The position numbers and the translations under genes were made by a program. From a virus (taxonomy: Duplodnaviria; Heunggongvirae; Uroviricota; Caudoviricetes), in IMG/VR virus record IMGVR_UViG_3300032167_000002, positions 152,286-216,285 of that record: DNA of 64,000 nt, one strand, 5' to 3'. Position 1 is the first letter of the stretch. Every line of letters begins with the position of its first letter. Shown in pieces: positions 19,616-42,170 of the stretch. The notes under the pieces were generated by a model. It was not told where the DNA came from. It made no database searches and saw only the letters and a program-made list of their open reading frames with translations.

Positions 19616-20203
19616 CTAAAGCATCGCAAGACACTTGGCGGTTTCTTCTCTCATCATTTCAATTGCATCATCCAAGAGGATAGGAGTGCAATTATTGGAG
19701 TCCATGCCCACATGGAACATATAAGGCATATCCTCATAAAATCTCTTCTGTTGATGAGTATGACCGAAGAGATTGATTAGATGCATTCTCAAATAAGGAG
19801 CTTTCTCCAAATTGGAAGTCATTGTAGGATGGTGGCTCAAATAGAAGTTGTACTTCTTGTACTTCATCATAGCCGCCGCAGGCTGAAGACCATTTGCAAG
19901 AGGCTCCAGCACAGTCACATTGGGCAACTGCTTATACAACTCAATGCGGGCCGCAGTATCGTGGTTGCCAGGGATGATGGTAATGTGACCATTCAATCTC
20001 TTCAAGCAACTAATACCATGAGCATTGTCATTAAGCATTACATCGCCCAAATGGAAAACTTCATCTTCGGGATTGACCACAGAGTTCCATCTTCGGATTA
20101 CCTCTTCATCATGCTCCTGGATGGAGGTGAAGCCACGAGGTCCGTAGAGGAATTCTCGGTCATGACCGAAGTGAGTATCACTCGTTACAAAAGTTCTACT
20201 CAT
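19616..20203 (-). CDS. Calcineurin-like metallophosphoesterase
   Basis: GDVMLNDNAHG...IIPGNHD motifs. Immediately downstream of the P-loop kinase, forming a Pnkp-like pair. Confidence 0.65.
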   Translation of the reverse strand: MSRTFVTSDTHFGHDREFLYGPRGFTSIQEHDEEVIRRWNSVVNPEDEVFHLGDVMLNDNAHGISCLKRLNGHITIIPGNHDTAARIELYKQLPNVTVLEPLANGLQPAAAMMKYKKYNFYLSHHPTMTSNLEKAPYLRMHLINLFGHTHQQKRFYEDMPYMFHVGMDSNNCTPILLDDAIEMMREETAKCLAML

Positions 20204-20745
20204 ACATTTACCTCCTTTGTGACACCCTCTGCGTTAACCGCGTAGACGTGGGTGAAACCCTCTTCCGCAGTGGGATACGCAAAGGACTTAAACATATTAT
20301 CAATCGCACTCACGGGAACTCTTGCTCGACCGGAGCGGAGTGAATTTCTTGCCTGGCAAAGCTCACGAGGCGTTGTGAAACACACACAGTTAAGCTCACC
20401 AATATTATTTTTCTTGACTCGATTAAGAGTTTTGTTACGAGAACGCTTATTCAAATGAGTAGCGTCGATGTAAATAGTGTGAATATCTTCTCTTTCAAGG
20501 GTCTGATTGATGTAGTTAATGAAAGTGTCGAATACTTCATCCTCATGGGAGAAATACTCTTCATCTTCACCAACAATGGCAAATCTCACATTGTCGCGAG
20601 AAATCCATTCAGAACCAGGCGTAATATTCGCACGCACCCACGTGGACTTACCCGACGCAGGAGGCCCCGACAAAAGATAAACTTTCTTTAGCTTCATCCT
20701 TATACACCCCATTAGCAAAATTTTCACGAAACTCTTCAACTTCAT
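20200..20745 (-). CDS. P-loop kinase (polynucleotide-kinase-like)
   Basis: Walker A LLSGPPASGKST. Paired with the metallophosphoesterase. Confidence 0.5.
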   Translation of the reverse strand: MKLKSFVKILLMGCIRMKLKKVYLLSGPPASGKSTWVRANITPGSEWISRDNVRFAIVGEDEEYFSHEDEVFDTFINYINQTLEREDIHTIYIDATHLNKRSRNKTLNRVKKNNIGELNCVCFTTPRELCQARNSLRSGRARVPVSAIDNMFKSFAYPTAEEGFTHVYAVNAEGVTKEVNV

Positions 20746-20914
20746 CGAATGTCTTACACTCGATATGATTTACTTCGCATTTGCAGTGAACACAGTAGAG
20801 TTTCTTTCGGTGCATCCCCTCGTGCTTGAAACCTTGCTTACGCATCAAGGGGATGCCCTTATTACCGCAGTTAATACAGTAAAAACTATGTTCTGCATAG
20901 CCCCTGCGGGCCAT
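20648..20914 (-). CDS. Cys-rich zinc-finger protein
   Basis: 88 aa with CINCGN...CVHCKC. Confidence 0.3.
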   Translation of the reverse strand: MARRGYAEHSFYCINCGNKGIPLMRKQGFKHEGMHRKKLYCVHCKCEVNHIECKTFDEVEEFRENFANGVYKDEAKESLSFVGASCVG

Positions 20915-21156
20915 TAAGACTTACTCCTTACAGTCACAGTATGACCGAACAGGATATGGCACAGCCACTGGAGACCAAAAGCCTGCCAGTAACCAATCAC
21001 CGGGAGTCCAAACAGACTCACAGCAATCCAGTTCCACAGCCACATCGTAATAGCAGGACCCAGGAACAACAGGGCAATCAGACCGATGATGATGAGAATT
21101 GCGGCACCGCAACCAATTTCATCATGACTTGACCAAGCATTTCTACTCATTTTCAT
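20914..21156 (-). CDS. Small membrane protein
   Basis: 80 aa with two hydrophobic helices. Confidence 0.3.
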   Translation of the reverse strand: MKMSRNAWSSHDEIGCGAAILIIIGLIALLFLGPAITMWLWNWIAVSLFGLPVIGYWQAFGLQWLCHILFGHTVTVRSKS

Positions 21157-21182
21157 TTCATTCCTTTCTTTATCTTACATAT

Positions 21183-21213
21183 ATATTATATCATATTTTT
21201 TTATAAAAATCAA
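21183..21213 (-). promoter_or_regulatory. Stereotyped sigma-70 promoter
   Basis: + strand atatattatatcatatttttttataaaaatcaa. Confidence 0.6.
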
Positions 21214-21978
21214 TTAAGACAAATAGGGGTCAGAGCAGAAGACCTCTTCATCCCAAGTATCCAGGTTCAACAGAACACAGTAGCCAGTAAAGACGGCGCC
21301 GCAATCAATGCAGCATTTCTTTCCACCAGCGTACCAAAGTGCACCAGGTTCGATTTCTCCCATGCGGCAAGCAGGGTCAATATCTTCCAAAAGATATGGA
21401 ATTGGAGTGTGTCCGTGAACAATAATCGCCTTTTGGAAGATTTCATCTTCGGGCCAGGGGTCAAGGAAATGGTCTCTATCCCAAATTAAATCTTCAGTCC
21501 ACACCCAGCGCATTTGACCTTGGTGGTCAGTTTGTGGAGTGAAACCAGCATGAGAGAGATATACAGTTTCACCTTGTGTGTTGACATATGTTGCCTTATC
21601 AGGCAGTCCAGCAAGGCGGCCTTTCCAATTTTGCCAATCAGGCTCTTCCATAGCTTCCTCAAAGGTTTTCTTACCTCCGTTGCTACGAAGCAAAGCAAAT
21701 GCAGAGCCATAGCCACGGCCCATTGCTTTAACTAGCATATCTTCATGGTTGCCTTTTAAATAAATAAATTGGGGGTCATCAAGAATGGTTTTGATGCATT
21801 CCCAAGGGTGCGGTCCGCGGTCACCAGCGTCACCAAGGAAGTAAACTACATCTTCTGGCTGAAGCATATCCTTAATAGCCTTATAGAAGTGTAGCATACC
21901 ATGTAAATCAGAACAAGCATATACAGCCATTATTTTACCTCCTTCTCTGGAATTAATACGAACATATAGCCCGTACAT
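21214..21978 (-). CDS. Calcineurin-like metallophosphoesterase (paralog 2)
   Basis: ACSDLHGM...FLGDAGDRGP...GNHE motifs. Confidence 0.65.
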   Translation of the reverse strand: MYGLYVRINSREGGKIMAVYACSDLHGMLHFYKAIKDMLQPEDVVYFLGDAGDRGPHPWECIKTILDDPQFIYLKGNHEDMLVKAMGRGYGSAFALLRSNGGKKTFEEAMEEPDWQNWKGRLAGLPDKATYVNTQGETVYLSHAGFTPQTDHQGQMRWVWTEDLIWDRDHFLDPWPEDEIFQKAIIVHGHTPIPYLLEDIDPACRMGEIEPGALWYAGGKKCCIDCGAVFTGYCVLLNLDTWDEEVFCSDPYLS

Positions 21979-40401: not shown

Positions 40402-40806
40402 AATGTCGCCTCCTTTAACCTTTAATTAAATACTCAACAGTAGTAACATACAGAGGAATGAAACCGAATAAGAACCATCCCTTCCAGGTTCGTTCATGCC
40501 ACTTGCGATAATGCTTATCATAACGGCTGGTACACCAAATGTACTTAATAATCATAGTATCAATCCCCTTCTAAAACTTTGATTACTCTATCACAGAGTT
40601 CTTCCATCTGTTCCTTTGTGATTTTTCGCCATTTCCAACACCAAGAGATTCGATTGGAAATCCATTCAATACTGCGTGTGTGGTAAGGCTTATAATTCTC
40701 GTAAGATTGGAGAGCCTTATCAATCTCGCTATAAAACTTATTCATAACTTTCTCCTCTCTTTACTTTCTATATATATTATAACATATTTTTTATAAAAAA
40801 TCAATA

Positions 40807-40833
40807 AAGACCCTATGGTTGCCATAGGGTCTT
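40807..40833 (-). terminator. Terminator hairpin AAGACCCTATGGTTGCCATAGGGTCTT
   Basis: Stem-loop next to the promoter at 40774-40804. Confidence 0.55.
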
Positions 40834-40836
40834 TAC

Positions 40837-41133
40837 TTAAAATTCAATCTTACTGTCTTTAGACTTGCCTTTAAAAGCATTTTCGGCTTTTTCAATTAAA
40901 TAGCCAATATAGTTAGGTTCTCTGTTCTCACGATATTCAACTGCCCAAGAGTAGGTCTTAGGTAAGAATACAACAACAAGAACAACCCAAACGACAGGCC
41001 AGCCAATTAATGCCAGAAGAGCAAGAAGAAGTGTAATCGCTAAGGCACCTGCGGCCGCAGTTCCCACGGCAATTAGATAATCTTTAATCCTCATAAACAT
41101 ACTCCTTATAACTTTTTGCGTAATCGGGAGCAC
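40837..41133 (-). CDS. Small membrane protein
   Basis: 98 aa with two transmembrane helices. Confidence 0.3.
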   Translation of the reverse strand: MLPITQKVIRSMFMRIKDYLIAVGTAAAGALAITLLLALLALIGWPVVWVVLVVVFLPKTYSWAVEYRENREPNYIGYLIEKAENAFKGKSKDSKIEF

Positions 41134-41279
41134 AAATTTTTACCTCGAAATGGTCGTCGTCTATATCGCTGGAATAGAATATTTCATGTAATGCCATTTG
41201 AATGTCATTTACATAATCTTCTAATTCATCTTCTGGAATGTCCTTAATTCTCATTACAAAATGAAATGGAATAACAAAA

Positions 41280-42170
41280 TCAGCATTTTTTGCCATAATC
41301 AGTCTCCATATCCCACAGAGCCATATAAGGACTCTTATCCAAATCCCACTCGTCAGCGTAAGTACACTGGTCATTCCACCGATTCCAGATGCTATCCAAA
41401 TCTTCATAATCCATATAGAACTGTTGAACATGAGGCCGCTCAATCCGGTCTGCATGGAAATGACCGAAAAGCCATACGTTCCAATCGAAAGTATCCTTAA
41501 CCTGGTTCATCCACCATTCCATAGAGGTATCTACAGTAGTCTGGTCAATGCAACCAAGAAAGAGGTCAGTAGGCTCCCAATCAAAGGGACAGGTATGAGT
41601 GAGCACAAGGTCAAACTTCTTGCCAACATTACTCTCCTGGATGGCAGTCATTTCCTCTTGGGTTAGACACTCATCTTTAAACCAGCCGCATTTCTTAGGG
41701 TCTGCAATAGCCCCATCAGTCGCAGAGTATCCGGCCCGAATGAGCCGCCAATACTTATCAACAGAATAAGCTCCGCCGATGACTAGAGTAGGATGACCGT
41801 CGATGACATAATTGCCACCATCGGCAAAATACCGAATATTGGGAAATTCTTCTTCCATCCAAGTCATATTACCAACTTGGAAATCGTTTTCAAGGTGCAT
41901 TCCGGGGATAAGTTCGGGCCGCTGTTCATGATTGCCCCGAACGCAGTAAATCTTAACACCCATATTGTTAAGCATTTTCTTATGCTTCTTGTCAGTTTTG
42001 TTCAGATAGAAGTTTAGACCAGCGTCACCTAGAATGATGACTCCGAGTTCACCATCTTCAAAACCGGGGTTATTCCGTTTAATATTGCTAATCCGAGTGA
42101 TGGTGCTGACTCCACCGTGAGTATCACCAGTGATAATCCACTTTTTAATCATCATCATTCTCCTTTCCAC
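41280..42170 (-). CDS. Calcineurin-like metallophosphoesterase (paralog 4)
   Basis: ITGDTHGG...ILGDAGLNFY...GNHE motifs. Confidence 0.65.
   Translation of the reverse strand: MERRMMMIKKWIITGDTHGGVSTITRISNIKRNNPGFEDGELGVIILGDAGLNFYLNKTDKKHKKMLNNMGVKIYCVRGNHEQRPELIPGMHLENDFQVGNMTWMEEEFPNIRYFADGGNYVIDGHPTLVIGGAYSVDKYWRLIRAGYSATDGAIADPKKCGWFKDECLTQEEMTAIQESNVGKKFDLVLTHTCPFDWEPTDLFLGCIDQTTVDTSMEWWMNQVKDTFDWNVWLFGHFHADRIERPHVQQFYMDYEDLDSIWNRWNDQCTYADEWDLDKSPYMALWDMETDYGKKC

Follow-up and report, generated by a model that had tools for sequence, protein, structure and literature searches.

Does the huge uncultured phage behind IMG/VR record IMGVR_UViG_3300032167_000002 encode an enzyme set for healing and sealing broken RNA and, if so, which of its genes belong to that set? 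A 64,000-nucleotide stretch of the record (positions 152,286 to 216,285; hereafter the window) raises this question, as a first-pass annotation had proposed an RNA repair toolkit distributed over window positions 19616–42170: a kinase paired with a phosphoesterase, an RNA ligase, a Thg1-like enzyme, and four paralogous metallophosphoesterases (MPEs). Every open reading frame (ORF) that it named was found in its place on the minus strand; nearly all plausible genes of the window lie on that strand, as do all window features given coordinates below. We consider the best explanation of the locus to be an RNA end-healing-and-sealing set interleaved with an NAD+ salvage block, with a Thg1-like enzyme working at tRNA 5′ ends, and judge this moderately probable. 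The RNA repair reading is partly supported and draws entirely on homology and conserved gene neighborhoods.

The ligase belongs to a divergent Rnl5-type subfamily

The gene at 33993–35411 encodes a 472-amino-acid ATP-dependent RNA ligase in which an OB domain at the N terminus precedes the nucleotidyltransferase domain, as the first-pass annotation had read it. Pfam detected the PHA02142 OB domain (PF21189, 6e-7) and, just below its gathering score of 27, RNA_ligase (8e-6, 26.5 bits); nearly the full length matched phrog_968 "RNA ligase" (4e-68), and the KLHGTS motif falls at residues 190–195. A search of 1.84 billion representatives returned 2,491 relatives (representatives at 50% clustering). 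In an alignment of 42 homologs with 34–60% identity, nucleotidyltransferase motifs I (K190/G193/S195), III (E271/G274), IV (E419/G420), and V (K435/K437) were all present and invariant. The profile built from this alignment had NgrRnl as its sole match in the whole PDB (1e-8), aligned from the OB domain through motif I; KLHGTS corresponded to KLDGSS of NgrRnl and REGVVV to REGLVF. The structural comparison gave the same answer. An AlphaFold2 (AF2) model of the ligase (predicted local distance difference test, pLDDT, 90.7) placed NgrRnl in all of the top 13 Foldseek positions (E 3e-17 to 2e-15; template modeling score 0.66–0.72 on target), and the match spanned all of NgrRnl at ~14% identity in the structural alignment. 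T4 Rnl2 came next at 3.5e-7, ten orders of magnitude weaker, and Rnl3 and REL1 were also far behind. Because of the invariant motifs, the NgrRnl-only profile match, and the NgrRnl fold match, the ligase is assigned to the Rnl5 type, as a long divergent subfamily.

The divergence is apparent in the family model and in the architecture. TIGR02306, the DraRnl family, matched at 6e-18, but the alignment was limited to the N-terminal half (positions 8–172), and its 64.8 bits missed the equivalog cut-off of 151.15. Like the Rnl5 enzymes DraRnl and NgrRnl (PDB: 5cot), the window ligase has an N-terminal OB domain and then a nucleotidyltransferase domain with motifs I, III, IV, and V, but it is ~130 residues longer, with a basic linker at 135–165, insertions at ~300–350, and an acidic tail. 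The subfamily is mostly phage-borne and is annotated "RNA ligase" in 381 isolated phage records. Several family members of ~800 amino acids (P0125, P0130, P0132, P0139, P0142, P0246, and P0256) carry a ~330-amino-acid insertion right after motif I (KxHGTS); these look like active-site inteins.

A polynucleotide-kinase-like enzyme is translationally coupled to a phosphoesterase

The P-loop kinase at 20200–20745 (Pfam AAA_33, 5e-15) probably starts at M17, position 20697, as judged from 164-amino-acid homologs, which would give a protein of ~165 amino acids. Its best PDB matches were the Clostridium thermocellum Pnkp (CthPnkp) kinase domain (4gp6, 2.7e-8), T4 Pnk (1ly1, 1.8e-6), and Pnkp1 (4xrp). 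The top NCBIfam model was that of bacterial Pnkp (TIGR04075, 4e-13), matched over its kinase segment with 48 bits against a cut-off of 750, and the top PHROG was phrog_505 "polynucleotide kinase" (3e-19). In the alignment, corresponding segments of CthPnkp 4gp6 faced the GKS of the P-loop, the aspartate and arginine of SRDNVR, and RNSLRSGR; the GKS, the Asp and Arg of SxD..R, and the lid arginines of RNxxRxxR are residues that we take to be essential in Pnk enzymes. A deoxynucleoside monophosphate (dNMP) kinase was considered and rejected, no dNMP kinase being present among the PDB or NCBIfam matches. By these matches, the kinase is closest to polynucleotide 5′-kinases, and the first-pass label of a Pnk-like kinase holds.

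The overlap between the kinase and the phosphoesterase gene at 19616–20203 (MPE1) that the first-pass annotation had reported is a 4-nt ATGA in which the TGA stop of the kinase and the ATG start of MPE1 coincide. A GGAGG Shine-Dalgarno sequence lies 8 nt upstream of the MPE1 start, inside the 3′ end of the kinase gene, and MPE1 is translationally coupled to the kinase. In the kinase-anchored set, nine viral loci retrieved with the kinase at 38–91% kinase identity, MPE1 was directly downstream of the kinase in 9/9 loci while the other neighbors varied; the pair is a conserved module. MPE1 itself is a 195-amino-acid calcineurin-like metallophosphoesterase (Pfam Metallophos_2, 1.3e-9; phrog_547, 5e-46), and the best solved structure was Aquifex aq_1665 (1xm7, 1e-4), an uncharacterized protein. 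Its family has 1,398 phage records, labeled only "phosphoesterase". We regard MPE1 as a candidate end-healing enzyme for 2′,3′-cyclic phosphates or 3′-phosphates.

Further phosphoesterases, a nucleotidyltransferase, and a cRec protein

MPE2 (21214–21978; Pfam Metallophos, 2e-13) is of the lambda-phosphatase/ApaH/Pnkp-phosphatase type. It carries DxHG, GDxxDRG, and GNHE motifs, belongs with the NinI-like phrog_246 (3e-38), and among solved structures matched lambda PPase (1g5b, 1.6e-5), the CthPnkp phosphatase domain (4j6o, 2e-4), and ApaH (9t9n, 4e-4). In phrog_8238, apparently a family of Pnkp-like fusions, MPE2 and the kinase match consecutive segments. The kinase and MPE1 had together been likened to bacterial Pnkp; the likeness stands for the kinase, but on the phosphoesterase side it belongs to MPE2 rather than MPE1, MPE2 being the one that matches 4j6o and the phrog_8238 phosphatase segment. 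In 6/9 kinase-anchored loci MPE2 lay within 8 kb of the kinase, and in L003, L009, and L040 it immediately preceded the kinase gene (L-numbers denote comparison viral loci or contigs). It is a candidate 3′-end-healing phosphatase; alternatively, it may be a protein phosphatase or a diadenosine tetraphosphate (Ap4A) hydrolase.

Two genes that the first-pass annotation did not mention proved relevant to the set. One, at 42645–43532, encodes a Pol-beta superfamily nucleotidyltransferase (NT) that is ligase-associated and, by context, RlaP-like. Its GS...DVD active-site motif is invariant in the homolog alignment, and its PHROG is phrog_388 "nucleotidyltransferase" (3e-15). The AF2 model (pLDDT 86) matched the folds of kanamycin NTase (ANT(4′), 6un8, 9e-6) and HalB (1e-4); no RlaP structure was among the fold matches in the PDB copy searched, and a search of the protein against PDB sequences gave no match. 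The NT homolog of L009, 56% identical, matched RlaP (PF10127) at 1.7e-4 with 21.8 bits, under the gathering score of 23, and one phage homolog is annotated as nrdC.11-like. T4 NrdC.11 is an RlaP, and RlaP enzymes add 1–2 nt onto damaged RNA 3′ ends (PMC12776372). In the NT-anchored set, 80 viral loci retrieved with the NT at 40–93% identity, 49 had an Rnl5-type ligase on the same strand and no more than 8 kb away. The NT is a candidate restorer of 3′-end nucleotides.

MPE4 (41280–42170; Metallophos, 2e-9; phrog_1649, 2e-22), which probably starts at 42152 according to the gene call on an identical contig, is a tight partner of the NT: it lies 0.5–1.9 kb downstream on the same strand in 38 of the 80 NT loci, and between NT and ligase in L009. 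The product of the second overlooked gene (44813–45196) contains a cRec (cyclic-phosphate processing receiver) domain, with a match to PF20274 cREC_REC (4.7e-18; 66.1 bits against a gathering score of 27) that covers profile positions 1–87 of 88. In jumbo phages, the cRec family has been described as associated with RNA ligase genes and with genes for NAD processing (PMC7824862), and the window protein is a candidate opener of 2′,3′-cyclic phosphates or of cyclic phosphates derived from ADP-ribose (ADPR).

The remaining phosphoesterase, MPE3 (39661–40401; Metallophos, 9e-6), is a second phrog_547-type protein (4e-20). It was considered as a partner of the Thg1-like enzyme and rejected, because it adjoins a Thg1-like gene in just 2/80 of the corresponding loci, both from the closest relatives; it was near the NT in 6/80 NT loci. 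MPE3 was therefore left out of the repair set. The metal-binding motifs DxH, GD, GNH[D/E], H, and GHxH, as read from the sequences, are intact in all four MPEs, and Pfam bears out their domain assignments. Their paralogy does not hold up: pairwise BLAST similarity is confined to superfamily motifs (the best pair, MPE1/MPE3, is 32% identical over 82 amino acids), and they fall into three PHROG families, phrog_547 (MPE1 and MPE3), phrog_246 (MPE2), and phrog_1649 (MPE4).

Gene linkage across phages defines the proposed repair set

The most compact arrangement was found in L009, a 47-kb viral contig with a contiguous same-strand cassette within 6 kb: NT, small ORF, MPE4, small ORF, ligase (OB, 1e-27; RNA_ligase, 6e-14), small ORF, MPE2, small ORF, kinase, MPE1. 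In L061 the Thg1-like gene sits between kinase and MPE1, and L040 has the whole set in a different order within 18 kb, together with NAD genes, a major vault protein (MVP) homolog, and an SPFH protein. An isolate, Bacillus phage vB_BcoS-136 (MH884508), encodes a 45%-identical ligase followed 5 nt on by a 338-amino-acid "polynucleotide kinase", which is a homolog of the window kinase in its N-terminal half (8e-9, 28% identical) and has an HD motif, read by eye, in its C-terminal half. Such a kinase-HD fusion fits the phosphatase displacement that one would expect of modular repair systems.

Comparative genomics supports tying kinase, MPE1, MPE2, MPE4, and ligase together. The real linked set consists of these five with the NT and cRec genes, and MPE3 and the NAD+ block are look-alike neighbors.

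A Thg1-like enzyme and a tRNA-His without encoded G-1

The Thg1-like enzyme (38624–39514; PF04446, 2e-28, 99.3 bits against a gathering score of 29.2) is a 3′-5′ nucleotidyltransferase of the bacterial Thg1-like protein (TLP) class. Its likely start is M29 at 39430, as called on an identical contig, which gives 268 amino acids. It matched phrog_4717 (3e-83) and the Bacillus thuringiensis TLP (4kgk; 2.5e-52, 181 bits), with the RLDG...FH and QSDE motifs aligned; eukaryotic Thg1 PDB entries reached only ~1e-5. Both halves of the protein match 4kgk, and the window protein differs in being phage-encoded and in having a 36-residue insertion between the halves. Homologs are present in 162 phage records, annotated as tRNA-His guanylyltransferase. 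The first-pass annotation was right about the identity of this enzyme; its membership in the repair toolkit found less support: among relatives the gene mostly stands alone, and supplying G-1 to the phage tRNA-His is a simpler candidate role.

A candidate substrate lies in the window's tRNA array, in which ARAGORN called 24 tRNA genes spread across 50.3–63.7 kb. The tRNA-His(GUG) gene at 62403–62479 (ARAGORN; Rfam tRNA, 69 bits) reads GTGAGTG...CACTCAC-C-CCA: a perfect 7-bp stem with G1-C72, then C73 and an encoded CCA, without an encoded G-1. The −1 base is a T, which forms a 1-nt spacer right after the CCA of tRNA-Gly(GCC). That gene (62480–62556) encodes its own CCA, and cleavage at His +1 would give tRNA-Gly a 1-nt trailer. 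Scored from ARAGORN's +1 call, G-1:C73 is encoded in 61 of the 72 other viral tRNA-His calls that share the anticodon arm; counting two apparent ARAGORN register slips raises this to 63. Eight of the 72, from seven loci, have T at −1. Among metagenomic tRNA-His genes with identical D and anticodon arms, G was at −1 in 54/54 readable cases. In the close relatives L210 and L218, the NT-MPE4-sigma-exonuclease-ligase regions are without MPE3 and TLP, and the same contigs (L159 and L119) encode a G-1 tRNA-His. A scan of 10 kb on either side of 80 viral TLP genes found a single tRNA-His gene, too few to correlate. Exact-pattern searches of the viral collection with the tRNA-His 5′ half and with a 30-nt core found nothing, and the 77-nt tRNA-His query gave only cross-matches to tRNA-Asp and similar genes in phage genomes. 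These data suggest, from one clear case (n = 1), that the tRNA-His is a candidate substrate of the Thg1-like enzyme, with G-1 supplied post-transcriptionally.

The NAD+ salvage block and a vault protein homolog

The first-pass span of 19616–42170 contains the ORFs named in it, but ~9 kb of it (22148–30641) is devoted to NAD+ metabolism, which had gone unnoticed. This near-complete NAD+ salvage/regeneration block, considered together with 3708–5699, contains NMNAT-like, AAA_28 NadR-type kinase, NADAR, NadE, NAMPT (NF006629, 413 bits), Sir2, YqeY, phosphoribosyl pyrophosphate (PRPP)-synthetase-like, and nicotinamidase genes. A pairing of PRPP-synthetase-like and NAMPT genes is also found beside the ligase in vB_BcoS-136 and resembles published phage NAD-reconstitution pathways. 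The phage also encodes an NAD-dependent DNA ligase.

An 838-amino-acid MVP homolog (30734–33250; MVP_shoulder, 2e-23; Vault_3, 1e-8) is located between the RNA ligase and the nicotinamidase gene, and its adjacency to the nicotinamidase PncA is seen again in L008 and L040. A 2023 preprint reported MVPs in phages. Because human vault shoulders bind ADP-ribose (2026 preprint), the phage MVP may by analogy be functionally part of the NAD+ block.

Neighboring genes and setting

Just upstream of the ligase, the gene at 36020–36928 encodes a DEDDh (RNase T/DnaQ-like) 3′-5′ exonuclease (RNase_T, 8e-17) that also matches phrog_192 "DNA polymerase exonuclease subunit". The order exonuclease, ORF, ligase is conserved in L012, L040, and L210–L218, and the exonuclease is near the NT in 11/80 NT loci; it is possible that it acts as an end-trimming partner or as a replication proofreader. 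Beyond it, a 77-amino-acid ORF (37006–37239), which has a Phage_T7_Gp5_9 Pfam match on the identical contig L001, separates the exonuclease from a full-length sigma-70 family factor (37241–38161; regions 1.2, 2, 3, and 4) that stands amid the repair genes. Phage_T7_Gp5_9 is a RecBCD-inhibitor family. The position of the sigma factor beside exonuclease and ligase is conserved in relatives.

At the other end of the set, a small conserved ORF of 80 amino acids (20914–21156) lies between MPE2 and the kinase; it has an 86%-identical counterpart at the same position in L003 and no Pfam match. The kinase-MPE1 pair is adjoined by an SPFH/Band-7/flotillin-like gene (17479–18987; Band_7, 7e-20) whose position after MPE1 is kept in L003 and L040. 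Burroughs and Aravind reportedly proposed in 2016 that SPFH modules are RNA repair scaffolds, and the window protein might conceivably be one. A PIN-PhoH fusion is encoded upstream of the SPFH gene (15478–16587), and in L009 the next gene after the compact repair cassette is one with a PIN domain (9829–10335); such RNA-acting PIN/PhoH proteins may be further associates of the repair set.

Toward the tRNA array, three genes lie side by side: a DUF2828 gene (46506–47456, 1e-29), a GmrSD_N plus HNH nuclease gene (47631–48821), and an EcoRI-like adenine methyltransferase gene (48836–50059, 1e-98). The DUF2828 protein was considered as a TROVE/Ro-like RNA repair scaffold and set aside, with no PDB sequence match and no relevant literature found. 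PD-(D/E)XK_5 endonuclease genes at 51952–52374 and 56793–57200 lie between tRNA genes and may encode homing-type or tRNA-array-associated nucleases. The array also holds a full-length ROOL RNA (57682–58295, 328 bits), a drum RNA (62889–62999, 78 bits), and a partial OLE-like match (51749–51836, 53 bits against a gathering score of 50); ROOL forms RNA nanocages (PMC12286853). Two tandem tRNAs with the amber-reading CUA anticodon were found at 53742–53816 and 53817–53891. TAG is the stop codon in 2/34 family-supported genes, and Phage Phass-1, a distantly related isolate, has been placed in the "Caudoviricetes code 15 clade". These observations suggest TAG recoding of genes outside the window; none of the genes studied here needs read-through of TAG.

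Identical copies of the ligase protein occur on metagenomic contigs as long as 406 kb, among them one from a JGI sample, and on related IMG/VR viral contigs of 80–230 kb. A megablast of 30–42 kb against isolated phage genomes gave no DNA-level match, so the phage is not a sequenced isolate. The source is a huge uncultured phage, and the source samples are probably gut or rumen; a homolog of one neighboring gene occurs in a Bacteroidaceae metagenome-assembled genome.

Discussion

The favored explanation can be put as a sequence of predicted steps. Host ribotoxins would cut tRNAs or other RNAs and leave 2′,3′-cyclic-phosphate and 5′-OH ends. The cyclic phosphate or 3′-phosphate would be opened and removed by at least one of cRec, MPE1, MPE2, and MPE4, and the Pnk-type kinase, co-translated with MPE1, would phosphorylate the 5′-OH. 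Optionally, the ligase-associated Pol-beta NT may refill the 3′ end after nucleotide loss, before the Rnl5-type ligase would seal the 3′-OH/5′-phosphate break via a Lys190-AMP intermediate. The Thg1-like enzyme would act at tRNA 5′ ends, where its most concrete job is predicted to be templated addition of G-1 opposite C73 of the phage tRNA-His, and repair of 5′-truncated tRNAs would also be possible. MPE3 and the NAD+ genes of 22148–30641 are outside the RNA pathway. Nucleases of the PrrC, RloC, or colicin type, which the first-pass annotation had expected, are conceivable targets of the repair set. A bolder version, in which NT-small ORF-MPE4-Rnl5 ligase with Pnk-MPE1 is a widespread, distinct RNA repair pathway that reveals the role of Rnl5 ligases as mending ribotoxin-cut tRNA in the course of infection, and in which loss of G-1 has made tRNA-His dependent on the Thg1-like enzyme, strikes us as tentative and rather doubtful.

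A number of points weigh against RNA healing and sealing as the function of the set. The activities of all the proteins, and the host nuclease that the pathway presupposes, are predictions. Many of the comparison loci are mutually related and come from one large metagenome collection, so the locus counts overstate the number of independent events. Most of the 1,398 phage records of the MPE1 family have no visible RNA repair context, and the top family names for MPE2 are protein Ser/Thr phosphatase and ApaH. The NT fold matches are generic Pol-beta NTases, and the NT protein had no Pfam match even at E ≤ 10, RlaP included. Most of the 80 TLP genes have no other repair gene within 10 kb of them, and two TLP-bearing relatives (the L040/L103 contig and L090) encode G at −1, so that the presence of a TLP is not tied to loss of G-1. 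The weakest point is the ligase substrate. Characterized Rnl5 enzymes seal duplex nicks, and their physiological role has been called "uncharted" (PMC5397189; Schmier et al., 2017); sealing of a tRNA anticodon loop is therefore not an established Rnl5 activity, and the only Rnl5 genetics implicates DNA repair after irradiation (PMC5397189).

It seems to us unlikely that the genes encode a loose group of auxiliary enzymes of a counter-defense/metabolic region sharing no pathway, in which case ligase, exonuclease, and kinase/phosphatases would act on DNA or RNA-DNA junctions in replication and repair, for instance by sealing nicks that have ribonucleotide 3′ ends or by cleaning DNA ends, and the phosphoesterases would have unrelated targets. 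T4-type Pnk enzymes act on DNA ends too. The ligase neighbors include the DnaQ-like exonuclease, the T7 gp5.9-like gene, and the sigma factor, with RNase H, NAD-dependent DNA ligase, and gyrase genes nearby; loss of DraRnl makes Deinococcus sensitive to ionizing radiation and slows genome reassembly, and not only Rnl5 but also Rnl2 enzymes seal duplex nicks (PMC5397189). The same work, however, found that characterized Rnl5 enzymes strictly require RNA on the 3′-OH side (PMC5397189), and for DNA the phage already encodes a dedicated, NAD-dependent ligase. The RNA ligase is consistently linked to MPE4 and to an NTase of the ligase-associated Pol-beta type, and its linkage to a Pnk-type kinase in L009 and vB_BcoS-136 reproduces the published RNA repair syntax. 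That some or all of the MPEs, perhaps with cRec, work with the NAD+ block in counter-signaling or NAD-related roles, on cyclic (oligo)nucleotides, ADPR signals, Ap4A, or phosphoproteins, we regard as more unlikely still. MPE2 adjoins the block at the NMNAT-like gene (22148–22726) and scores with ApaH (1.2e-7), PrpA/B-type protein phosphatase (1.6e-8), and NinI-like families (3e-38), and NAD and repair genes are intermixed in L040; moreover, T5 A1 orthologs, which are calcineurin-like phosphodiesterases, have been predicted to act against nucleotide signals, and the genes linked to cRec include both ligases and those for NAD/ADPR processing (PMC7824862). What such roles would leave unexplained is that MPE1 stands beside a Pnk-type kinase in every kinase-anchored locus, that MPE4 is fixed beside the ligase-associated NT, and that MPE2, which matches the phosphatase part of a family of Pnkp-like fusions, tracks the kinase. 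Nor do the family names of the MPEs exclude RNA end healing, since lambda phosphatase reportedly has 2′,3′-cyclic phosphodiesterase activity, as described by Keppetipola and Shuman in 2007.

For the Thg1-like enzyme, a pure maturation role falls only a little short of being probable: it would add G-1 opposite C73 on the phage tRNA-His for charging by host HisRS and take no part in repair. The T-1, C73, encoded CCA, and 1-nt spacer of the window gene fit this role, as does the contrast with comparison genes, in which G-1 is encoded in 61–63/72 viral and 54/54 metagenomic cases, among them those of L210 and L218 (contigs L159 and L119), whose regions are without TLP and MPE3. TLPs add nucleotides by Watson-Crick templating (PMC4820378), and the Thg1-like gene usually stands apart from repair genes. 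On the other hand, G at −1 is encoded in two TLP-bearing relatives, the G-1-less condition with a known TLP is a single case (n = 1), and the Thg1-like gene separates kinase from MPE1 in L061 and has repair genes around it in L040 and L079.

RNA healing and sealing, the explanation that we prefer, has precedents with which the locus can be compared. In jumbo phages, RNA repair systems have been described as a ligase with a polynucleotide kinase and phosphoesterases, alongside RlaP, cRec, sporadic Thg1, many tRNAs, and NAD+ synthesis genes; most of the phage ligases were Rnl1 or Rnl2, and linear phosphatases were mostly HAD enzymes, calcineurin-like in "a small number" (Iyer, Anantharaman, Krishnan, Burroughs and Aravind, 2021; PMC7824862). 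The window has the same gene syntax, with phage tRNAs and an NAD+ module, and because that syntax is already published, the locus is a further example of a described type. It differs in that its ligase is of the Rnl5 type, its candidate phosphatases are all calcineurin-like or cRec, and its genes are spread over ~25 kb and interleaved with NAD genes. From the bacterial Pnkp/Hen1 and Pnkp1-Rnl-Hen1 systems (C. thermocellum and Capnocytophaga), it shares a similar kinase, the MPE2 phosphatase, and the logic of kinase, metallophosphoesterase, and ligase, but here the domains are separate genes, the ligase is of the Rnl5 type, unlike the C-terminal ligase domain of Pnkp, and the gene that overlaps the kinase is MPE1, from another MPE family. 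No Hen1-like match was found among the roughly 55 window ORFs that were profile-scanned.

T4 Pnkp-Rnl1, which acts against PrrC, has the same predicted purpose and chemistry, healing 2′,3′-cyclic-phosphate and 5′-OH ends and then sealing them. The first-pass annotation had set the split arrangement apart from that system, and rightly: the window has no Rnl1, its kinase shows no more than distant similarity to T4 Pnk (1.8e-6), and Pfam scans found no HAD domain in or beside the kinase. Bacillus phage vB_BcoS-136 has a ligase of the same subfamily, a homologous Pnk-type kinase, and the prs-NAMPT pair nearby, but its kinase is fused to HD and ligase-adjacent, whereas the window kinase is coupled to MPE1 and lies 13 kb from the ligase. 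The locus thus belongs to neither the bacterial Pnkp/Hen1 family nor the T4 Pnkp-Rnl1 system, although it probably works like them. Its particular features are the Rnl5-type ligase, healing candidates drawn only from calcineurin-like and cRec proteins, the coupled Pnk-MPE1 pair, and the NT-small ORF-MPE4 module.

For annotation, the gain is that a linked repair set has been told apart from its look-alike neighbors. The tRNA-His lacking G-1, together with a Thg1-like gene, yields a directly testable prediction on why phages carry 3′-5′ polymerases. Hundreds of isolated Bacillus and actinobacterial phages share the ligase subfamily and offer a tractable setting in which the in vivo role of Rnl5 could be addressed. 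If the repair function proposed here is true, an Rnl5-based, all-calcineurin-type variant would join the answers of phages to host defenses that cut tRNA.

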